Origin: Escherichia coli
GTDB lineage: Bacteria; Pseudomonadota; Gammaproteobacteria; Enterobacterales; Enterobacteriaceae
Assembly (NCBI GenBank): GCA_026712415.1
Contig: GCA_026712415.1_4696.1
Length of the DNA: 40,620 nucleotides
Strand: one strand, 5' to 3'
In this document: positions 21,314-39,934 of the stretch, one piece after another
Layout: every line of letters begins with the position of its first letter
Numbering within the stretch: the first letter of the stretch is position 1
The notes under the pieces: generated by a model
Told to the model about the DNA's origin: nothing
What the model saw: the letters and a program-made list of their open reading frames with translations, nothing else
Database searches by the model: none
Translations under genes and position numbers: made by a program

Positions 21314-23593
21314 ATGAGTAAGTTAGCTCAAGCATTGGGTAGCATGAATGCTCCGACTACCAGTCGTCTGCGTGGCACTGGTCGTATGGAAGTTAAGGCC
21401 GCAGCAGTCTATGAAGACCCTAAGTATGCCAAGAAGTCCGCACTGATTGGGACTGTGGGTAAACTTGCTGAGATGGGTGCGGATGCCTATATGAAGTATG
21501 ACCAGCACCAGAAGGACAAGGCAGACGAACGCTCAAACGAGATTATTCGTAAGCTGACTCCTGAACAACGCCGAGAGGCCATTAAGAATGGAACCCTGTT
21601 ATATCAGGACGACCCATACGCAATGGAAGCACTTAAGGTGAAGACTGGTCGTAACGCTGCGTATCTCGTTGATGACGAGGTAGCACAGAAGGTTAAGAAC
21701 GGTGAGTTCCGAACCCGTCAAGAGATGGAAGAGTTTCGTCATAGTCGCCTACAGGAATCCGCTAAGAATTATGCTGAACAGTTTGGTATCGACGAGACCG
21801 ATGAGCACTACCAGAAGGGATTCAACTCTGACATCACCGAGCGTAACATTGCTCTCTATGGCGCTCATGATAACTTCCTGAGTGACCAAGCTAAGAAGGG
21901 TGCTGTCATCAACAGTCGCGTAGAGTTGAACTCCGTGTTGAACGACCCGGAAACCCTGCGCTCTCCGCATGCTGGTGAGTTCTTTGAGAACTACTTCAGT
22001 GCCGGATTGACTACAGGAAGTATCCCTAGTGATGACCAAGCGTTCACAATGATTAGCCAAGGTCTCTCTGACGTGGTTAACCGTGAGGGCGGTGGTCAGT
22101 TCCTGCAACAGATTGAGAACCGAAAGGTAAAACTGCATGGCAAGGAGACTACCTTCAAGGAACTGATGGGTGCCGAACAGTGGAACAATCTGATGGTTAA
22201 GGCTCAACATAATGAGTTCCAGTTGAATGCTAAGAAGACCGAGGCGTTCCAACTTAATGTGAACTCTGCGTTGAACCAAGAGAACGTGAACACTGGCTGG
22301 GAACAGTTGCAATCCATAAAAGCTGAACTGGACACACTGCAACCGGGCGAAGAGATGACACCTGAACGTCAGGCGTTAATCAATGCACAGACGCAGATGC
22401 AGGACAGGATGAAGCTGGAGACCGCTGAGTTAGCCAAGCAGATGGACAAGCAACAGAAGTCGATGAACAAGATGAACGTCATTGACGCACAGTTCCAGAA
22501 GCGGCTCAATGGTCAGTATGTGTCTACTGCGTATGGCGATATGCCTACCAACGAGAACACTGGTGAGTTCACCCATAGTGACATGGTTAACTATGCGAAC
22601 AAGAAGCTGGCTGACATTGACGCTATGGACATCCCTGATGCACAGAAGGACCGCATGAAGTTGGACTACCTCAAGGCTGACTCCGAGAAGGGCGCTTTCC
22701 GTACTGCGGTTGGTGAACTGATTGGTGACGCTGAGAAGGAATGGACGTCCGCTGTGATTAACGGGAAGATGCCAGAAGATGGTGGTGTGGCTCTTAATGC
22801 CCTGCGACGTGTTCGTAATGCTGACCCTGAGTTATTCGCTGCACTCTATCCTGATAAAGCCGAGATGTTCCTCACTATGGACATGATGGACAACCAAGGG
22901 ATTGACCCGCAGATTCTCTTAGATGCGGATAAGGCTCGTAAGTCTCTTACCAAAGAGATGCAGTACGAGGATGACAAGGCGTGGACTTCCCTGAAGAACA
23001 ACTCCGAGTCTCCTGAACTGTCCCGTATGCCAGCTACATTGGATGCAGGTGCTCGTAAGATTTATGACTCCGTTAAGTACCGCACAGGTAATGCTGATTC
23101 GGCAATGCAACAGGTCGATAAGTATCTCAAAGAGAACACAACGACTCTCACTGCTGATGACGTTGATGGTGATACCATTGGTGTCTTGACGAGAAACTCT
23201 TTGCGTGTGACTGATGACCCGGACTCTTGGAAACAAGGTAAGGACATTATCGACACAGCCGCTAAGAAACTCGCTGAGACTAACCCTTGGGTTACTAACA
23301 AGCAACTCATTGTGTTCGAGCGTGGTGACTCTATCTACCTGATGGACACGACCGGACAGGTAAACATTCGGTATGACAAGCAGTTGCTCTCTAAGATGTA
23401 TCAAGAGAACCAAGCGAAGCTGGATGAGGAAGCCCGTAATAAGGCACTCAAAGATGCCAACAAGCGAACCCTACATACACGAGCTATGAACCGCAAGCGT
23501 GAACGTGAAGCTAAGAAGCCTAAGCGCTCTGGCAGCATGTACGATAGCGTGAGTGGCAAAGGTATTCTGGATACGCTGACTGGTAAAGACTAA
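21314..23593 (+). CDS. internal virion protein B (gene 15)
   Basis: 759 aa; DERSNEIIRKLTPEQRREA...YQDDPYAMEALKVKTGRNAAYLVDDEV matches recalled T7 gp15. Confidence 0.93.
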   Translation: MSKLAQALGSMNAPTTSRLRGTGRMEVKAAAVYEDPKYAKKSALIGTVGKLAEMGADAYMKYDQHQKDKADERSNEIIRKLTPEQRREAIKNGTLLYQDDPYAMEALKVKTGRNAAYLVDDEVAQKVKNGEFRTRQEMEEFRHSRLQESAKNYAEQFGIDETDEHYQKGFNSDITERNIALYGAHDNFLSDQAKKGAVINSRVELNSVLNDPETLRSPHAGEFFENYFSAGLTTGSIPSDDQAFTMISQGLSDVVNREGGGQFLQQIENRKVKLHGKETTFKELMGAEQWNNLMVKAQHNEFQLNAKKTEAFQLNVNSALNQENVNTGWEQLQSIKAELDTLQPGEEMTPERQALINAQTQMQDRMKLETAELAKQMDKQQKSMNKMNVIDAQFQKRLNGQYVSTAYGDMPTNENTGEFTHSDMVNYANKKLADIDAMDIPDAQKDRMKLDYLKADSEKGAFRTAVGELIGDAEKEWTSAVINGKMPEDGGVALNALRRVRNADPELFAALYPDKAEMFLTMDMMDNQGIDPQILLDADKARKSLTKEMQYEDDKAWTSLKNNSESPELSRMPATLDAGARKIYDSVKYRTGNADSAMQQVDKYLKENTTTLTADDVDGDTIGVLTRNSLRVTDDPDSWKQGKDIIDTAAKKLAETNPWVTNKQLIVFERGDSIYLMDTTGQVNIRYDKQLLSKMYQENQAKLDEEARNKALKDANKRTLHTRAMNRKREREAKKPKRSGSMYDSVSGKGILDTLTGKD

Positions 23594-23616: not shown

Positions 23617-26600
23617 GTGGATAAGTATAACCCGAACGAATCGCATGAATATGATGCGTTATTTCAACAAGCTGCTGACACACATGGAGTCTCCTATGGC
23701 CTTCTTCGGAAGGTCGGTTGGGTAGAGTCCCGCTTTAAACCTACGGCTCAATCACCAACAGGGCCACGAGGTGTCATGCAGTTCACTAAGGCAACTGGTC
23801 AGGCTTATGGTCTCCAGAACGATGAGGACTTCGCTGACCCGGCTAAGTCCATTGATGCTGGTGCTCGTTACCTTGCAGACCTCGTTAAGAAATACAATGG
23901 GGATGAACTTAAAGCTGCCCTAGCGTACAACCAAGGTGAAGGGAGCAACGGTAAGCCACAACTGGAAGCCTACGATTCTGGTAACTTTGCTGGCATCGGT
24001 GATGAAGGTCGTAACTATCTGCGTTCACTTCTGGATGTCGCTAAGTCACCTAAGAGTGGGGACATCGAGTCATTCGGTGGTATCACCCCAAAGGGTAAAG
24101 GGATTCCGTTTGATGCTGCGATGAGTGGTATCGGGAAGAAAGGAAAGGTAACAACTGAACTCCCTGAGTCTCACGAAATGTCCTTTCAAGGTAAAGAACA
24201 GGCCGCTCCCAATCAGCCGTTCGGAAAAGATTATTGGGAAGCCAAAGGTACAACTCTTGACGAAGCAAACGAGCGTTCAACCTTCTTCGGATTCGGTAGT
24301 GCTGCTGAAGCAGAACTCTCAAACTCAACCTTGGGTGTTGCCTTCCGTGCTGGTAAGCGTGACAATGGTTTTGATGTGCTCACTGATGTACTTCAACCGA
24401 CACGGTTTAACAGCCACATTTGGTCGCCTGAAGAACTCGATAAGATTCGCAAAGAAGTGAAGAACCCTGCGTACATGAACGTTGTGCTTGGTGGTTCCGC
24501 TGAGAACCTTGACGAGCTAATCAAGATGGCTAATGAGAACTTCGAGTTGGACTCTAAGGCTGCTGATGCGGGTCTAGGTGCCAAGCTGTCTGCTGGTCTT
24601 ATTGGTGCTGGTGTTGACCCGTTGACCTACGTTCCTATCGCTGGGACTGCGGCTAAAGGGTTCAAGCTGGTTAACAAGGCGTTGATTGTAGGTGCTCAAG
24701 CTGGTGCACTTAACGTTGCCTCTGAAGGTCTGCGTACATCGGTTGCTGGTGGTGATGCACATTATGCTGAAGCTGCCCTTGCTGGGATGTTACTGGCTGG
24801 TGGACTGACTTCTGTGGCAGATGGCGTTGCTGCGGGTCTCCGTAAGTCTGGTGCTGAACAGATTGAGAACCCCTTTGCTGCTGCACAGATGCGCTTTGAG
24901 ACTCGTGAGACTGCACGTAACACTGGTGGTTATGACGCAAGCCGTATGCCTCCTAGTGAAGACCGAGTGTTCTCACAGCACAACGGCGTTGAGTATGCAC
25001 CACTGGAAACTGAACCGGGTGCTGTAGTGTTGCGTGATGGTTCCATTATCAGTGACACAAACTTGGCTAACCCGATGACAGCCAAAGAGTTCGAAGAAGT
25101 AGACCCTGAACGTGCTGCGTGGGGCTTGCCTATGCGTGGATTGAGTGAAATCGGCTTGAGGACTTTACGTTCTGAACATGCTGAAATCCGTGGTCTCGCT
25201 AAGGACTTAGTGCGTTCACCTACAGGTATGGAGTCAGGCTCACATGGTAAGTTTGGTTCCACTACATCGGACATCATAGAGCGACTGCGCAGTCTCAATC
25301 ATCGAACCTACAATAACCTATATGGTGCAATGAAGGAAGCGATGGCTGACCCTGAGTGGTCTGTTGGTATGTTCAAGAGTGGTGCTCAAGGTGCCCGTCA
25401 ACAAATCTATCGTCGTACTAGTGAGGCTATCGAGAGACCTGAACTTCAGGCCAACTTGACCAAGGCAGAACGTAAGGTGATGGACATCGTGAAGGAACAC
25501 TATGACCTCAAGCGTGAGATGATGGAGAACCCGTCGATGTTCGGTAACAAGGCCACCTCTATCTTCCCTAACAGTCGTCACAAAGGGACTTACGTTCCTC
25601 ATGTGTACTCACGGGAAGCCAAGCAGTTGTACTCACAGGCTCTTGGGGGCACTGATGGTTTACAGGAAGCAGTTGCTGCAAGCCTGATGGCATCATATCA
25701 TGCACGCCCTGAAGTTAAGGCCCGTATTGATGAGATGCTGGCAGAGCAGTTACGGGTATCCAAACCAGCGGGTAAGACTGCGGGTACTACACCCAATAAG
25801 CCCTCTTCTGTCAACACAGCAAGTTACCAGATGAAACTGGACGATACAGCTACACAGGCAAGTGATAAGGTATTGGAACTAAAAGACGTCATGACCAACG
25901 CTGAGAAGCGAGTTGCGGACCGTGAAAGGAAACTCCAGAACTCCAAGGACAGACTGGCTTCGCATGAGGCTAAACTGAAGGAGTTGGAAGAAAAACTAGC
26001 TGCTAAACCTAATAGCAAAACCATTCCTGTTAAGATTGAGAGCCGGAAGCAGATGATTGAGACCCAGAAGTCTCGCATCCGTATTAACACAGAGCGTCTC
26101 GACTACATGAAAGGACAGGCTGCTAAGGTCCAAGACAGAATCACCAAAGCAACCGCCGAAGCTGAGGAAGCCGCCTCTGCTGCCAAAGGGCAGAAGACTA
26201 CTGGTGGCGGTGAAGACACTATCGTTGGTGAAGCCACATCGGGTAATGCACCTCAATCAGTACAAGAGGTGACTATGGATATGGTCGAGAAGTACGCTAT
26301 GGACAAGGCTTACGGTATTACGAAGACCGATGAGTTCAACTCTTCAAGTGTCATTGACGATAACATTGAGGGTCTCGTTGGGATTGAGAACAACTCATTC
26401 CTTGAAGCCCGTAACCTGTTTGATTCTGACGTGCCAATCACTCTACCGAACGGGCAACAGTTCTCTGTGAATGACCTCCGTGACTTCGATATGAAGCATG
26501 TGATGCCAGCATATGACCGCCGTGTTGATGGTGATATTGCTATCATGGGAGGCACAGGTAAGACTACTGCTGAACTCAAGGACGCTATTATGGCTCTTGA

Positions 26601-28062
26601 TAAGAAGTCTGAAGGTAAAGGTACAATGAAAGGTGAAGTGGAAGCACTTAAGGATGTCGTTAAGATTGTCACTGGTCGTGCTCGACGCAATCAGGATACT
26701 GTAGGTGACACTATGGTCCGTGCTCTGTCCGATATGTCCTTCTTCACGAAGAACGCATATATGGGCTTGCAGAACCTAACCGAAATCTCCGGTATGTTGC
26801 AGAAGGGTAATATCCGTGCGATGCTTCATGGCATTCCGGTACTGCGTGACTTAGCGTTCCGCAACAAGCCAGTCTCTGGTAGTGAACTCAAAGAACTCCA
26901 CTCTATGGTGTTCGGTAAAGAGTTTGATGACTTAGTCCGACCTACTCGTCAAGACATCATTCAGCGACTCCGTGAGTCCACTGATACACCTGATGTTGCC
27001 GCAAAGGTTGTTGGTTCTATCAAGCACACAACTCAAGAACTGGCGGCTCGCTCACCTCTCACCAAGTTCCTCAATGGTACGTCAAACTACCTTCTGGACA
27101 TGGCCCGACAGGGTGTGATGGGTGATGTGGTAACTCATGCTATCACTGGAAAGGGTGCCAACAAGTGGATTAAAGGTGACATGTTGAAGTCTGCGAGTAT
27201 CTCTAAGGAACAGTGGGAAGGCATTCAGGCTCTCATCCGTGAGAACGTTACCCGTGGGGAAGATGGTAAGTTTACCTTCAAGGATAAGAAGGCTCTGGCT
27301 AATGACCCTCGTGCTATGGACTTGTGGCGTTTGGCTGACAAGGTTGCTGATGAAACGATGCTTCGACCTCATAAGGTTTCCTTACAGGATTCCCATGCGT
27401 TTGGTGCCACCGCTAAGTTAGTCCTTCAGTTTAAGTCGTTTGTCATCAAGTCGATGAACTCTAAGTTTATCCGCTCCGGTCACGAAGCCTTTAAGAACCA
27501 GCGTGCTATGGACATGGCGCTGACCTATGCAATCTCTGGTGGTATCGCTGGCTCCTACTATGTGGCACAGGCCCACTTGAAGGCTGCTGGTCTTCCTAAA
27601 GAGCAACAGAAGGATTACTTGAAGAAAGCTCTCGACCCGAAGATGATTGCCTACGCTGCGGCCTCCCGAAGTTCACACTTAGGGTCGCCTCTGAGTATCG
27701 CTAACTTCGCTATGGGTGCTGCTGGTTACGACCAAGGTCTTATGGTTCGCTCTACGATTCTACCGAAAGGTGATGACAAGCGTGAGCGCAACAAGGCGGT
27801 GACTTCTCGTGACATGGGTGATTCCATTATGGGCGCTATTGGTGAACAGGTTCCTGCTCTTGGCTTCGCTGGTGCTGCTCTAGCTACTGGTCGAAATGCT
27901 TATGGTGTCCTTACGGCTCCTAACAAACCGACCGAGCGTGAGATGATGACTGGCTTAATGAATGCTCACCGAGAGATGATTCCTAACGATCCAATCTCTC
28001 AACAGATGCTCATTAAGTTCTATGAGGCCAACGGTGTTCACATTAAGGCTGACAAGAAGTAA
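23617..28062 (+). CDS. internal virion protein D with N-terminal lytic transglycosylase domain (gene 16); GTG start
   Basis: 1481 aa; SLT-like N-terminus (VMQFTKATGQAYGL) and colinear identity to recalled T7 gp16, except a ~170-aa coiled-coil segment with no T7 counterpart. Confidence 0.93.
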   Translation: MDKYNPNESHEYDALFQQAADTHGVSYGLLRKVGWVESRFKPTAQSPTGPRGVMQFTKATGQAYGLQNDEDFADPAKSIDAGARYLADLVKKYNGDELKAALAYNQGEGSNGKPQLEAYDSGNFAGIGDEGRNYLRSLLDVAKSPKSGDIESFGGITPKGKGIPFDAAMSGIGKKGKVTTELPESHEMSFQGKEQAAPNQPFGKDYWEAKGTTLDEANERSTFFGFGSAAEAELSNSTLGVAFRAGKRDNGFDVLTDVLQPTRFNSHIWSPEELDKIRKEVKNPAYMNVVLGGSAENLDELIKMANENFELDSKAADAGLGAKLSAGLIGAGVDPLTYVPIAGTAAKGFKLVNKALIVGAQAGALNVASEGLRTSVAGGDAHYAEAALAGMLLAGGLTSVADGVAAGLRKSGAEQIENPFAAAQMRFETRETARNTGGYDASRMPPSEDRVFSQHNGVEYAPLETEPGAVVLRDGSIISDTNLANPMTAKEFEEVDPERAAWGLPMRGLSEIGLRTLRSEHAEIRGLAKDLVRSPTGMESGSHGKFGSTTSDIIERLRSLNHRTYNNLYGAMKEAMADPEWSVGMFKSGAQGARQQIYRRTSEAIERPELQANLTKAERKVMDIVKEHYDLKREMMENPSMFGNKATSIFPNSRHKGTYVPHVYSREAKQLYSQALGGTDGLQEAVAASLMASYHARPEVKARIDEMLAEQLRVSKPAGKTAGTTPNKPSSVNTASYQMKLDDTATQASDKVLELKDVMTNAEKRVADRERKLQNSKDRLASHEAKLKELEEKLAAKPNSKTIPVKIESRKQMIETQKSRIRINTERLDYMKGQAAKVQDRITKATAEAEEAASAAKGQKTTGGGEDTIVGEATSGNAPQSVQEVTMDMVEKYAMDKAYGITKTDEFNSSSVIDDNIEGLVGIENNSFLEARNLFDSDVPITLPNGQQFSVNDLRDFDMKHVMPAYDRRVDGDIAIMGGTGKTTAELKDAIMALDKKSEGKGTMKGEVEALKDVVKIVTGRARRNQDTVGDTMVRALSDMSFFTKNAYMGLQNLTEISGMLQKGNIRAMLHGIPVLRDLAFRNKPVSGSELKELHSMVFGKEFDDLVRPTRQDIIQRLRESTDTPDVAAKVVGSIKHTTQELAARSPLTKFLNGTSNYLLDMARQGVMGDVVTHAITGKGANKWIKGDMLKSASISKEQWEGIQALIRENVTRGEDGKFTFKDKKALANDPRAMDLWRLADKVADETMLRPHKVSLQDSHAFGATAKLVLQFKSFVIKSMNSKFIRSGHEAFKNQRAMDMALTYAISGGIAGSYYVAQAHLKAAGLPKEQQKDYLKKALDPKMIAYAAASRSSHLGSPLSIANFAMGAAGYDQGLMVRSTILPKGDDKRERNKAVTSRDMGDSIMGAIGEQVPALGFAGAALATGRNAYGVLTAPNKPTEREMMTGLMNAHREMIPNDPISQQMLIKFYEANGVHIKADKK

Positions 28063-28134: not shown

Positions 28135-30060
28135 ATGGCTAACAAAATTTCCACTGTACGTACTTACCCGCTGAACGGTGCCGTGAACTTCACGATTACC
28201 TTTGAGTATTTAGCACGTAAGTTCGTCCAAGTGACACTCATCGGGAAAGACCGTAAAGAGTTGGTTCTCAATCAGGACTATCGCTTTACCACTAAGACCC
28301 AAATCACAACCTCCCGTGCGTGGACTGCTGCCGATGGTTATCAGATGATTGAGATTCGTCGATTCACTTCTGCAACCGACCGTCTGGTTGACTTTGCTGA
28401 TGGCTCAATCCTTCGTGCGTATGACCTTAACATCTCACAGATTCAGACGCTGCACGTAGCTGAAGAGGCACGAGACCTAACTGCGGATACCATTGGTGTC
28501 AACAATGATGGTCACTTGGATGCCCGTGGTCGTAAGATTGTGAACCTAGCGTTCGCTACCAGTGACTACGATGCTGTCCCTCTGAAGCAAGTAAAAGAGC
28601 GCGAGTCGTCTGCTTGGAACGCTGTTAACAAGGCCAATGAACACGCTAACCGCTCTAACACTGAGGCTAACCGATCGCGAGATGAAGCTGACCGTGCAAA
28701 ACGTGAAGCTGACCGCTCAACCCAACAGGCAGGTGTCTCTACGGCACAGGCGGTTGAGTCCAAGAAGCAAGCTGACCGTTCCAACTCTGAGGCTAACCGA
28801 GCTAAAGGTTATGCTGATAGTATGACCGCAAGTGTAGCTGAGGCCAAGAAGCAAGCTGACCGTTCTAACTCTGAGGCCAATCGTGCCCGTGATGAGGCCA
28901 ATCGTGCTGCCGGAGAAGTGACTAAGGCTGCTGCTGAGGTTGCCAAAGCCGCTGCACACGTTGCTACCGCTGATGGACATGCTGACAGAGCCAACACTGA
29001 GGCAAACCGCTCCAAGAGTGAAGCTGACCGTGCAAAGACCGAGGCTGACAAGTTAGGGAATATGAATAACTTAGCGGGAACCATTAAAGCGGTTAATGGT
29101 GAGAACGTTGTTTTTAAGAATGATGTTGTAGCACCCGGACAGATTACTGGTGAAAAGGAAGTAAGGGCTGGCGCAGGTCAATCGTTTAGCGTGTTAACAA
29201 GGAACTCGTTGCAGCTTGTGAACCAGAACTTCGCTGATAGAAATATGAGGTTCTTCGTATGGGGGAATGACCAAGGACGTGCAAACGTATTTGAGTTAGG
29301 TGGTAGCGGTAATGGGTACTATATGTATATCCAGAAGGCTAACCTTAACGACACATTTTGCCAGATGCGAGTGAATGGACATATGGAGGCTGCTGGTGGG
29401 CTTACGGTTGGACAATCAGGTGACTTCACTGGAATCTTACAGACTCGCTCACAGAACCTGCTGATGATTAACTCTGCTCGTCGACATATTCAAATGAAAA
29501 CCAGCGATAACTACACCGATGGTTATCTTTACAAAGACCCCGGCGCTGGGGCGTGGAGGCTTAACTTTGGTCAGGCAGCTAACAGGGAGTATACGTTTGA
29601 TTCAAATGGTACATTAACATCCAACTCAGGCTGGTACATTCCACCAGATGGTAACTTATACATCACGAAGTATGATTCTTACATCGACGGTTGGGTCAAC
29701 AAACGCCTTGGAGAACATGCCTACAATAAAAGCGAAGTAAACAACCTAGTCAATGGACGGTTAACTCAAGCGCAAGCTGATGGTCGATACGTCAATAAGA
29801 ATGCTGGGTGGGCTGAGGTCTGGAAAGGCTCTGCTGGTGGTGGTGTCTCGGTAGGTCTCTCACAGGATGTTCGTTGGAGAACCATCTGGATTCAGACCAA
29901 TGGTCGCTGGAACGCCGTTCCTATTGGTGACAATGCGGCTTACTTCATCTCGTCTGATGGTGGTTGGTTGAAGTTCACAATCTCCAACAACGGCAGAACT
30001 TTCCGTAACGACCAAGCCTACCGTTCAGTCCCTACGCGAATCTTAGTTCAAAACCAATAA
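28135..30060 (+). CDS. tail fiber protein (gene 17)
   Basis: 641 aa; N-terminal tail-attachment domain (FEYLARKFVQVTLIG...DGSILRAYDLN) and C-terminal tip (VWKGSAGGGVSV...YFISSDGGWL) match recalled T7 gp17; central region carries ADRSNSEANRA-type repeats. Confidence 0.93.
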   Translation: MANKISTVRTYPLNGAVNFTITFEYLARKFVQVTLIGKDRKELVLNQDYRFTTKTQITTSRAWTAADGYQMIEIRRFTSATDRLVDFADGSILRAYDLNISQIQTLHVAEEARDLTADTIGVNNDGHLDARGRKIVNLAFATSDYDAVPLKQVKERESSAWNAVNKANEHANRSNTEANRSRDEADRAKREADRSTQQAGVSTAQAVESKKQADRSNSEANRAKGYADSMTASVAEAKKQADRSNSEANRARDEANRAAGEVTKAAAEVAKAAAHVATADGHADRANTEANRSKSEADRAKTEADKLGNMNNLAGTIKAVNGENVVFKNDVVAPGQITGEKEVRAGAGQSFSVLTRNSLQLVNQNFADRNMRFFVWGNDQGRANVFELGGSGNGYYMYIQKANLNDTFCQMRVNGHMEAAGGLTVGQSGDFTGILQTRSQNLLMINSARRHIQMKTSDNYTDGYLYKDPGAGAWRLNFGQAANREYTFDSNGTLTSNSGWYIPPDGNLYITKYDSYIDGWVNKRLGEHAYNKSEVNNLVNGRLTQAQADGRYVNKNAGWAEVWKGSAGGGVSVGLSQDVRWRTIWIQTNGRWNAVPIGDNAAYFISSDGGWLKFTISNNGRTFRNDQAYRSVPTRILVQNQ

Positions 30061-37282: not shown

Positions 37283-39934
37283 ATGACTAACGTAATCAAC
37301 GCACCAAAGAACGACTTCTCTGACATCGCTAACGCAATCATGCCATACAACATTCTGGCTGACCATTACGGCGCACAGCTTGCAGCTACGCAGTTACAGC
37401 TTGAGCACGAAGCGCACACCGAAGGCGAGAAGCGTTTTCTTAAGGCAATGGAACGTCAAATCAAAGCGGGTGAGTTCGGTGATAACGCAGTGGCTAAACC
37501 GCTCCTGTCATCTCTCGCACCGAAGTTTATCGAGGCGTGGAACGATTGGTTCACTGAAGTGGAAGCGAAGCGTGGCAAGCGTCCAGTAGCCTACAATCTG
37601 GTACAGAAGGTTGCACCTGAAGCTGCTGCATTTATCACACTGAAGGTCACACTCGCTTGCTTGACGAAAGAAGAGTTCACCAACCTGCAATCGGTCGCCA
37701 CTAAGATTGGTCGCAGTATTGAGGATGAACTGCGTTTTGGTCGCATCCGTGACGAAGAAGCGAAGCACTTTAAGAACCACGTACAGGAGGCACTGAACAA
37801 GCGCGTTGGTATCGTCTACAAGAAAGCATTCATGCAAGCTGTAGAAGGCAAGATGCTTGATGCTGGTCAACTGCAAACCAAGTGGACCACATGGACACCT
37901 GAAGAATCAATTCACGTTGGTGTGCGCATGTTGGAACTGCTCATTGGGTCTACTGGTCTCGTTGAGTTACACCGCCCGTTCGCTGGGAACATCGAGAAGG
38001 ATGGCGAGTACATCCAACTGACCGAACAATACGTTGACCTGTTATCTAAACGTGCTGGTGCACTGGCTGCAATCGCTCCAATGTATCAGCCTTGCGTGGT
38101 CCCACCTAAGCCTTGGACTTCTCCGGTCGGTGGTGGCTATTGGGCTGCTGGTCGCAAGCCTCTCTCTCTGGTTCGCACTGGTAGCAAGAAGGGACTTGAG
38201 CGTTACAACGATGTGTACATGCCTGAAGTTTACAAGGCCGTGAACATCGCACAGAATACTCCTTGGAAGATTAACAAGAAGGTTCTGGCAGTGGTCAACG
38301 AGATTGTGAACTGGAAGCATTGCCCGGTTGAAGATGTACCCGCTCTGGAACGTGGAGAACTCCCGGTCAAACCTGATGACATCGACACGAACGAAGCGGC
38401 TCTGAAAGCGTGGAAGAAAGCGGCCTCCGCAATCTACCGCAAAGAGAAGGCACGAGTGTCACGCCGCATGAGCATGGAGTTCATGTTAGGTCAGGCCAAT
38501 AAGTTCGCACAGTTCAAAGCTATCTGGTTCCCAATGAACATGGACTGGCGCGGTCGTGTGTATGCTGTGCCGATGTTTAACCCGCAAGGCAACGACATGA
38601 CCAAAGGCTTGCTGACGTTGGCTAAAGGTAAACCAATCGGTGTCGATGGGTACTACTGGCTGAAGATTCACGGTGCTAACACTGCTGGCGTGGACAAGGT
38701 GGACTTTGCAGAACGCATCAAGTTCATTGATGACAACCATGAGAACATCATGAGCGTTGCGGCTGACCCGATTGCTAACACTTGGTGGGCCGAGCAAGAT
38801 TCTCCGTTCTGCTTCCTCGCGTTCTGCTTCGAGTATACAGGTGTGCAACACCACGGGATGAACTACAACTGCTCTCTTCCGCTGGCGTTCGATGGTAGCT
38901 GCTCCGGTATTCAGCACTTCTCCGCGATGCTCCGTGATGAGATTGGTGGTCGTGCGGTTAACCTGCTGCCAAGCAAAGAGGTACAAGACATCTACCGCAT
39001 CGTAGCGGAACGTGTCAACGAGATTCTGAAGCAAGATGTAATAAATGGCACCGACAACGAAGTCGAAACCGTGACCAATAAGGACACAGGGGAAATCACT
39101 GAGAAGCTCAAGCTGGGCACGAAGGAACTGGCTGGTCAATGGTTAGCATACGGTGTTACTCGTAAGGAGACTAAGCGTTCCGTTATGACCTTGGCGTATG
39201 GTTCCAAAGAGTATGGCTTCCGTGACCAAGTGCTAGAGGATACAATTCAGCCAGCTATCGACGATGGCAAGGGCTTGATGTTCACTCAACCGAACCAAGC
39301 GGCTGGCTACATGGCTAAACTGATTTGGAACGCGGTAACGGTGACAGTGGTCGCTGCGGTTGAAGCAATGAACTGGCTGAAGTCTGCTGCTAAACTGCTG
39401 GCTGCTGAAGTCAAGGACAAGAAGACAAAAGAGGTTCTGCGCAAACGCTGTGCGGTACATTGGGTTACTCCTGATGGCTTCCCGGTCTGGCAGGAATACA
39501 AGAAGCCAGTACAGACACGCTTGAACCTGATGTTCTTAGGCCAGATTCGTCTACAGCCTACCGTGAACACCAACAAGGATAGCGGAATTGATGCTCGTAA
39601 GCAGGAGTCAGGCATCGCACCTAACTTTGTCCACTCAATGGATGGTAGCCACCTGCGCATGACTGTGGTCCGCTCCAATGAGGTCTACGGTGTGGAATCG
39701 TTCGCACTGATTCACGACTCCTTTGGTACTATCCCTGCTGATGCTGGCAACCTGTTTAAAGCAGTGCGTGAAACGATGGTCAACACTTACGAAGAGAACG
39801 ATGTACTTGCAGACTTCTATGAGCAATTTGCTGACCAGTTGCACGAATCACAGCTTGACAAGATGCCTGAGATGCCAGCTAAAGGTTCTCTGGACCTGCA
39901 AGAAATCCTTAAGTCAGACTTTGCGTTTGCCTAA
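37283..39934 (+). CDS. single-subunit DNA-directed RNA polymerase (gene 1)
   Basis: 883 aa (same as T7 RNAP); catalytic and specificity-loop regions conserved; loop reads ...QPTVNTNKDSGIDARKQESGIAPNF with the T7-type Asn at the base-reading position. Confidence 0.98.
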   Translation: MTNVINAPKNDFSDIANAIMPYNILADHYGAQLAATQLQLEHEAHTEGEKRFLKAMERQIKAGEFGDNAVAKPLLSSLAPKFIEAWNDWFTEVEAKRGKRPVAYNLVQKVAPEAAAFITLKVTLACLTKEEFTNLQSVATKIGRSIEDELRFGRIRDEEAKHFKNHVQEALNKRVGIVYKKAFMQAVEGKMLDAGQLQTKWTTWTPEESIHVGVRMLELLIGSTGLVELHRPFAGNIEKDGEYIQLTEQYVDLLSKRAGALAAIAPMYQPCVVPPKPWTSPVGGGYWAAGRKPLSLVRTGSKKGLERYNDVYMPEVYKAVNIAQNTPWKINKKVLAVVNEIVNWKHCPVEDVPALERGELPVKPDDIDTNEAALKAWKKAASAIYRKEKARVSRRMSMEFMLGQANKFAQFKAIWFPMNMDWRGRVYAVPMFNPQGNDMTKGLLTLAKGKPIGVDGYYWLKIHGANTAGVDKVDFAERIKFIDDNHENIMSVAADPIANTWWAEQDSPFCFLAFCFEYTGVQHHGMNYNCSLPLAFDGSCSGIQHFSAMLRDEIGGRAVNLLPSKEVQDIYRIVAERVNEILKQDVINGTDNEVETVTNKDTGEITEKLKLGTKELAGQWLAYGVTRKETKRSVMTLAYGSKEYGFRDQVLEDTIQPAIDDGKGLMFTQPNQAAGYMAKLIWNAVTVTVVAAVEAMNWLKSAAKLLAAEVKDKKTKEVLRKRCAVHWVTPDGFPVWQEYKKPVQTRLNLMFLGQIRLQPTVNTNKDSGIDARKQESGIAPNFVHSMDGSHLRMTVVRSNEVYGVESFALIHDSFGTIPADAGNLFKAVRETMVNTYEENDVLADFYEQFADQLHESQLDKMPEMPAKGSLDLQEILKSDFAFA

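Follow-up and report, generated by a model that had tools for sequence, protein, structure and literature searches.

The 40,620-nucleotide stretch of DNA analysed here (contig GCA_026712415.1_4696.1 of Escherichia coli assembly GCA_026712415.1, hereafter the window) is a complete, circularly permuted genome of a T7-like phage of the Berlinvirus type. Its gene 16, on the plus strand at 23617-28062 and with a GTG start, encodes internal virion protein D (gp16), an ejectosome component of 1481 amino acids according to the open reading frame list, and at 25741-26274 this protein holds a 178-residue segment that T7 gp16 lacks. Of the components of the T7 DNA-delivery machine, gp16 is the one about which least is understood, including the way in which its C-terminal domain first clamps DNA and then ratchets it into the cell. 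Here, we describe the segment as a predicted two-helix hairpin that has moved between phage genera as an in-frame cassette, together with the other contents of the same gp16 loop, and weigh what the hairpin may do during genome entry.

Boundaries, predicted anatomy and conservation of the gp16 insert

T7 gp16 has 1318 amino acids (NC_001604, 30595-34551) and the gp16 of the insert-free Berlinvirus Kvp1 has 1315, and in a MAFFT alignment the whole length difference to the window protein falls at one site, amino acids 709-886 (25741-26274, 178 residues), bordered by RPEVKARIDEML on the left (...KARIDEML) and by MDMVEKYAMDKAYG on the right. Since this segment stands where T7 has 12 residues, KELHGVKEVTPE, the net gain is about 166 amino acids; the loop of Kvp1 is similarly short. 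Searches with phmmer against the T7 gp16 structures 7eyb, 7k5c and 6yt5 matched window residues 1-710 and 888-1477 to T7 residues 1-715 and the remainder, with the match stopping at 710 and restarting at 888, and by alignment the window gp16 is colinear with T7 gp16 over its whole length, the insert excepted. A sequence-only reading of this DNA had proposed an insertion relative to T7 at 25741-26274; the alignment bears this out, the segment being a true insertion with respect to T7/T3-type proteins, and both lengths on which it relied, 1481 and 1318 amino acids, are correct (open reading frame and NC_001604, respectively). The enrichment in lysine, glutamate and glutamine that it had noticed likewise holds, with lysine at 12.4% of the insert versus 7.1% of the rest of gp16, glutamate at 9.6 versus 6.5% and glutamine at 6.2 versus 3.4%. 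Phenylalanine, tryptophan and cysteine are absent from the insert, histidine occurs once, and the module has a mild positive charge (net +6, with +5 in its second helix alone).

The same reading had taken the segment for a coiled coil, and this stood in part: it is predicted to be alpha-helical and heptad-periodic, but the heptad character spans only about 122 of the 178 residues. In the AlphaFold2 model, the insert is not one long coiled coil, but consists of a disordered linker, a helix, a six-residue turn, a second helix and another disordered linker, with the predicted local distance difference test score (pLDDT) being above 90 at 110 helical residues and below 50 in both linkers. The N-terminal tether (amino acids 709-733, 25741-25815; AEQLRVSKPAGKTAGTTPNKPSSVN) is hypervariable and rich in proline, glycine, threonine and lysine (pLDDT <50 for residues 716-731), and the C-terminal tether (862-886, 26200-26274; TGGGEDTIVGEATSGNAPQSVQEVT) is hypervariable and rich in glycine, threonine and serine (pLDDT <50 for residues 861-888). 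Between them lie helix 1 (734-796, 25816-26004), with a hydrophobic stripe at seven-residue spacing formed by V752-M759-V766-L773-L780-L787-L794, the tip turn PNSKTI in the context KPNSKTIP (797-802, 26005-26022), which is the sole non-helical stretch between the helices, and helix 2 (803-861, 26023-26199, including R820), with the corresponding stripe I807-I814-I821-L828-A835-I842-A849; all these features are on the plus strand. Each helix thus bears one stripe of seven heptads and a weaker second one, the other faces being charged. Taken together, the insert is predicted to fold into a coiled-coil hairpin about 9 nm long, in which two helices of about 60 residues run antiparallel, and to hang from gp16 by a flexible tether of about 25 residues on either side.

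The antiparallel packing of the two helices is a prediction of the model, whose best Foldseek matches are antiparallel hairpins. These matches were all of a generic kind (AhlC, YscO, colicin E9/E3, p85 iSH2, SMC and HlyD; template modelling score, TM, up to 0.55), none had an E-value below 1e-3, and a search of BFVD with the insert model likewise returned generic hairpins. Because the short flanks of the insert are both modelled as helices (amino acids 698-713 and 886-899), the cassette would be located in an inter-helix loop.

In the published composite model of the T7 ejectosome, the periplasmic tunnel of gp15 is decorated and taped by gp16 residues 1-228, putative membrane segments are assigned to residues 243-410 and 1119-1290, and residues 411-1118 (gp16-C) form a DNA-binding cytoplasmic hub (PMC8954989; bioRxiv 10.1101/2021.01.04.424714). 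As the insert replaces T7 residues of about 713-724, in the loop 712-725, it lies in this hub. It ends 14, 31 and 38 residues upstream of the conserved G900, I917 and E924 (26314-26388, plus strand), which by alignment correspond to T7 G737, I754 and E761, positions at which substitutions in T7 lead to transcription-independent entry of the whole genome (PMC8954989; PMC6042481). The copies of gp16 form a tetramer in the virion core and a hexamer after ejection (PMC11784390; PMC8954989).

The cassette shows the marks of strong purifying selection acting on it as a protein. In comparisons with the Klebsiella and Kosakonia phages introduced below, the ratio of nonsynonymous to synonymous divergence (dN/dS) in its core (amino acids 733-858) is 0.08-0.14 at dS 0.3-1.1, and that of the essential flanking gp16 is 0.11-0.28. 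Open reading frames on the minus strand overlap the insert, and codon-level selection acts on the plus frame. Across nine diverse sequences, the invariant columns are concentrated near the tip, amounting to 85% in helix 1 residues 757-796, 83% in the turn and 75% in helix 2 residues 803-830, while the figures are 57% and 32% for the two helix bases, 4% and 0% for the N- and C-terminal linkers and 32-41% for gp16 next to the insert. Further, exposed heptad positions in helix 1 are conserved as much as core positions. Because conservation is graded along the hairpin and is highest at the tip, exposed positions included, the pattern fits a putative binding surface at the far end of a tethered rod, and not a mere spacer or junk.

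Distribution, transfer and alternative contents of the loop

The hairpin segment was found by tblastn in 20 of 50,697 phage records, in gene 16 in every case, while the gp16 region itself was found in 1282 records; among 60 evenly spaced gp16 records, 57 had a short loop and two the hairpin module. The carriers belong to at least three named genera and include Berlinvirus, Teseptimavirus, Kayfunavirus and phages of Klebsiella. At the same site, with segments 68-99% identical to that of the window, the module is present in Enterobacter phage PZJ0206; E. coli phages P483, Carena, JacobBurckhardt (Bas65), NC-A, ST31, ZH4, CY1 and ElsieAttenhofer (Bas105); Klebsiella phage phi1_146025; Kosakonia phage Kc166A; Yersinia phage vB_Yep_9; and Shigella phage A7. 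They differ from the window in their linker types, in an extra tandem GNAT cassette in A7 and in a histidine at the position of R820: codon 820 (26074-26076) encodes arginine (CGT) in the window versus histidine in 12 of 12 other cassette-bearing phages. The length survey that the sequence-only reading had called for showed enlarged proteins to be rare, the Berlinvirus-type gp16 clusters at 90% identity having lengths of 1315 amino acids (105 clusters), 1490 (eight), 1503 (two) and 1640, 1481, 1430, 1347 and 1324 (one each). A scan of IMG/VR with the module returned four already-known isolates and nothing else.

The carriers are already public, and their deposited proteins are annotated merely as internal virion protein or transglycosylase. 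No mention of the insertion, of the GNAT alternative or of a hotspot was found in a literature search, and a review of ejection proteins mentions mosaic domain swapping in general terms, not the gp16 loop site.

Sequence comparisons show the hairpin segment to be a laterally mobile cassette that has moved between phage genera. In amino acids, the core is 91% identical to that of JacobBurckhardt, 90% to that of phi1_146025 and 82% to that of Kc166A, while the remaining gp16 is only 40-73% identical; at the nucleotide level the core identities are 95.5, 89.9 and 80.2%, versus 56-70% in the flanks. For JacobBurckhardt, a Teseptimavirus, the contrast is one of 95.5% core identity versus 59-69% in the gp16 flanks, a divergence at fourfold-degenerate sites of 0.08 in the core versus about 0.6 in the flanks, and a dS of 0.075 versus 1.7-2.3. 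Codon-level alignments delimit the acquired patch, consisting of the cassette and Teseptimavirus-type junction codons, to codons 707 to about 901 (25735-26319, plus strand). On the left, the window resembles Berlinvirus Kvp1 through GAT GAG (amino acids 705-706) and JacobBurckhardt and T7 from ATG CTG onwards, which places the breakpoint at codons 706/707; on the right, at about codon 901, it is of the JacobBurckhardt/T7 type through GAC AAG GCT TAC GGT ATT and again of the Berlinvirus type from ACG AAG ACC. The junction residues, DEML... and ...EVTMDMVEKYAM, have the Teseptimavirus form. Because both the codon tracking and these residues are of this type, the most likely source of the patch is a donor resembling a Teseptimavirus, with homologous recombination taking place in the conserved flanks. 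On the left, the boundary given in the earlier reading is at most two codons away from the recombination junction, and on the right the acquired patch extends slightly beyond that reading, to about 26319. In the window, the insert is not bordered by direct repeats. In Shigella phage A7, the hairpin cassette lies between the two copies of a 37-nucleotide imperfect direct repeat (76% identity; L002, 2479-2515 and 2902-2938), which encodes A-(D/E)-x-ENFLR with the linker motif ENFLR and is a plausible recombination substrate for cassette gain or loss.

The hairpin is not the only occupant of this loop. At the insert site, the loop of canonical phages is short (12-25 residues) and hypervariable, and in pO103 (L003, 2425-3030), PP74 (L004) and others the loop holds a different cassette of about 165-190 amino acids, which is recognised as a GNAT acetyltransferase domain: isolated cassettes score 24.0 and 25.2 bits against Pfam Acetyltransf_1 (gathering score 20.7), the acetyl-CoA motif RRKGIA (of the R/Q-x-x-G-x-G/A type) is present, and the top Foldseek matches of a low-confidence AlphaFold2 model are almost all acetyltransferases. 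This cassette was found in 14 phage records, always in gp16, from phages of Klebsiella, Shigella, Pectobacterium, Enterobacter, Yersinia and E. coli. In Shigella phage A7 the hairpin and GNAT cassettes stand in tandem within a gp16 of 1644 amino acids (L002), and this protein has been detected in purified virions by mass spectrometry with 111 unique peptides and 72.9% coverage (PMC8427288). Insert-bearing gp16 is thus packaged in A7, which is indirect evidence for the presence of the window protein in the virion. The earlier description of gp16 as an ejected core protein is supported.

A series of alleles among Berlinvirus-type proteins drawn from genomes and metagenomes shows how these parts have been combined. 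Two unrelated linker types occur. The hairpin is framed by two type 1 linkers in the window, by two type 2 linkers in the P483 type (1490 amino acids, eight clusters) and by a type 1 and a type 2 linker in Carena; the hairpin with GNAT gives a protein of 1640 amino acids and GNAT alone one of 1503. Additionally, there are two module-less scar alleles that retain linker remnants only, P0015 (1347 amino acids) and P0050 (1324 amino acids). In the P0015 scar, linker type 1 is joined directly to linker type 2 (...TTPNK|QPSERQKF...), and in that of P0050, YLREIHADEFEK is joined to VEPKVDEE; from these junctions, P0015 would have arisen by deletion of the hairpin and P0050 by deletion of the GNAT cassette. 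As the modules are gained, shuffled and lost, they are considered accessory.

Searches for origin and the surroundings of gene 16

Several possible identities and origins of the insert were tried and rejected. Membership in the SMC, Rad50, RecN or FliJ families found only generic coiled-coil similarity (12.6-20.5 bits versus cut-offs of 50-1087). An RNA polymerase secondary-channel hairpin of the GreA/GreB/DksA type was dismissed on account of a tip, AAKPNSKTIPVK, without acidic residues, the lack of a globular domain and the lack of a Pfam match. An intein or homing-endonuclease insertion does not fit a segment that has no cysteine and a single histidine, starts with AEQL and ends in EVT followed by MDM, and profile searches of the insert with Pfam, PHROG and NCBIfam gave no Hint, LAGLIDADG or HNH matches. 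An origin by internal duplication was likewise discarded, as tblastn of the module against the masked window gave nothing below E=2.6. A scan of the insert found no embedded sigma-70-like promoter or terminator. A word-indexed protein search with the 178-residue insert alone retrieved only the gp16 fragment P0001, and it missed the known carriers P0003-P0013, which were later retrieved with the full-length query; this result is thus uninformative, negatives with short queries resembling low-complexity sequence being unreliable.

Gene 16 is flanked by gp15 (21314-23593) and a tail fibre gene (28135-30060), and the product of the upstream gene in a relative matches Pfam PF26212 (Phage_T7_Gp15). 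The N-terminal part of the window gp16 carries a lytic transglycosylase (SLT) domain (amino acids 15-120, 23659-23976, plus strand; Pfam PF01464, E=1.2e-25, 89.8 bits versus a cut-off of 21.3) with its catalytic glutamate at residue 37, the same position as the catalytic E37 of T7 gp16 (bioRxiv 10.1101/2021.01.04.424714). Enterobacter phage PZJ0206 is the closest record to the window, and the gene 16 sequences of the two share 94.6% nucleotide identity across the full length. No identical protein is on record for the exact window gp16, and the nearest, also of 1481 amino acids, comes from E. coli assembly GCA_026712295.1 (contig JAJCTR010000043.1), codon 820 being the single difference. Downstream of that near-identical gp16 there is a quite different gene of 329 amino acids, and the fibre region is for this reason regarded as mosaic. 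In the window, the tail fibre gene 17 (641 amino acids) contains a degenerate protein-level repeat at residues of about 170-310, with EANRS, EADRA and KQADRS motifs, which is probably a coiled coil; a DNA tandem repeat was sought in this gene and none was detected.

The window contains 15 matches to the T7-type phage promoter consensus ATACGACTCACTATWGGGA with at most three mismatches, all on the plus strand, whereas 0.01 would be expected by chance. One of them is located 4 nucleotides past the stop of gene 16 (28066), and none of the 15 is inside the insert. The RNA polymerase gene is found at 37283-39934, and the window is therefore circularly permuted relative to the T7 map.

Proposed role of the hairpin and comparison with known systems

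In the best reading, the cassette is an accessory, laterally transferred in-frame module located in a permissive inter-helix loop of the gp16 C-terminal domain, which is believed to extend into the cytoplasm. As the virion contains gp16 and ejects it before the DNA, we propose that the hairpin would reach the entry site as a binding element on tethers, and its conserved tip would there dock a macromolecule, either a host protein or the entering DNA. The loop would in this way be a "cargo slot" through which phages inject accessory functions of use on some hosts only, and the hairpin would not be part of the channel wall. We give a probability of roughly 0.5 to this reading, which makes the hairpin a binding module injected on tethers and one of two or more cargo cassettes that T7-like phages carry in the loop. 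A more far-reaching version is that the loop is a dedicated slot for interchangeable effector domains (hairpin wand, GNAT or both) that are injected into the cytoplasm ahead of the genome and traded between genera by recombination, and that the hairpin is an anti-defence or host-takeover effector docking a host factor at the entry site; this we put forward tentatively, as a possibility with the odds against it.

Several points weigh against the binding-module reading. The module has no homologue with a known function: in an exhaustive HMMER search of 1.84 billion representatives it had no relative outside gp16, the one addition being a repetitive coiled-coil protein that is not related to it (P0002), and the matches in Pfam, PHROG and NCBIfam (all below threshold) as well as in PDB and BFVD were of the generic coiled-coil kind. 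There is no binding partner, activity or phenotype of the hairpin on record, and the cytoplasmic placement of gp16-C comes from a published model, not from a solved post-ejection structure. Some of the strong conservation might stem from recent spread and not from selection, although the comparisons with Kc166A, at a dS of about 1, argue otherwise. Finally, the closeness of the insert to the clamp residues fits equally well with its main rival, in which the hairpin acts in cis on the adjacent clamp and changes the extent or rate of DNA entry before transcription. Such a modulator could, for example, tighten or release an arrest at about 850 bp and so adapt entry to particular hosts or restriction systems, and the mildly basic character of the module, above all of helix 2, is compatible with contact to DNA. 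The rival also draws on the distance of 14 to 38 residues between the insert and the equivalents of the clamp residues. The disordered tethers on each side would, however, decouple the hairpin mechanically from the gp16 body, and the clamp residues themselves are unchanged. Because an unrelated GNAT domain fits the same loop and a tandem of hairpin and GNAT is tolerated, the site would be merely permissive and not coupled to the clamp, and we consider regulation of entry kinetics unlikely.

The sequence-only reading had suggested that the insert could alter channel length or host interactions. An interaction with the host is plausible and is favoured by the conserved surface of the tip, but an effect on length is not supported, given that a hairpin returns the chain to its start, that its linkers are disordered and that it lies in the hub. 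A related structural role, in which the hairpins of four gp16 copies in the virion or six after ejection bundle and thereby lengthen or stabilise the core stack, hub or channel, draws on the frequent oligomerisation of coiled coils, on the tetrameric and hexameric states of gp16 and on the analogues FliJ and YscO, which are hairpins plugging hexameric rings. Against it, a hairpin inserted in a loop is unable to extend the path of the chain, the single hydrophobic seam on each helix with charge on the other faces leaves no obvious surface for higher-order bundling, and the periplasmic tunnel is built of gp15 and gp16 residues 1-228, not of the insert region. Moreover, about 98% of related phages do without the module, including close Berlinvirus relatives with more than 90% identical gp16, and the scar alleles show that it can be lost, all of which makes a structural element improbable. 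Rarity, patchiness, lateral transfer and loss would also suit a functionless passenger, an insertion, selfish or neutral, that a permissive loop happens to tolerate and that recombination spreads, as would the lack of any function assignable by homology. For such a passenger, dN/dS values at or below those of the essential flanking gp16 are hard to explain, as is the invariance of 75-85% of the tip residues while the linkers vary freely, and nuclease, intein and transposase features are all missing from the insert, as are cysteine and any embedded promoter or terminator. This explanation is therefore the one to which we give very little credence.

The site suggests that podophages may use in-frame modules of their ejectosome to deliver accessory effectors, in which case determinants of host range and anti-defence could be sought in a place not considered before. 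The natural cassette variants can be used as isogenic tests of genome-entry control. A natural and well-tolerated site that accepts two unrelated cassettes 14-38 residues from the clamp also marks this loop for tagging gp16 or for loading injected cargo, and engineering of internal capsid proteins for injected cargo has already been attempted (bioRxiv 10.1101/2024.05.06.592667). Even if the cassette were inert, the data would still be a useful map of a permissive site.

Compared with known systems, the window protein shares with T7 gp16 (PDB 7EYB, 7K5C and 6YT5; PHROG 342) the SLT domain with E37, the position between genes 15 and 17 and the equivalents of G737, I754 and E761, and differs from it in having 178 residues with a tethered coiled-coil hairpin in place of the 12-residue loop. 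The GNAT-cassette alleles of gp16 (E. coli pO103, Pectobacterium PP74, Klebsiella P7246 and others) use the same loop for a module of similar size that is equally rare and scattered, and their C-terminal linker matches that of the P483-type coiled-coil alleles; the fold, an acetyltransferase versus a helical hairpin, is unrelated, and the window has no GNAT cassette. With the colicin E3/E9 receptor-binding domain, the HlyD/AcrA adaptors, FliJ/YscO and GreA/DksA, the likeness is that of the predicted two-helix antiparallel hairpin to hairpins of similar length (Foldseek TM 0.3-0.55, with a weak profile match to FliJ), and the concentration of conservation at the tip of the window hairpin resembles this class of hairpins that bind through their tips; the tips of GreA/DksA are acidic, whereas that of the window hairpin is basic.

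Injected virion proteins with accessory functions are represented by T4 Alt and the T4 internal proteins, P1 DarA/DarB, the N4 virion RNA polymerase and 80alpha gp44. With all of them the resemblance is an analogy of working mode only, that of a capsid-delivered protein which arrives together with the DNA or before it and acts at or near the entry site. These are separate proteins or functions of whole proteins, while in the window the putative function would reside in an in-frame cassette within a protein of the ejectosome.

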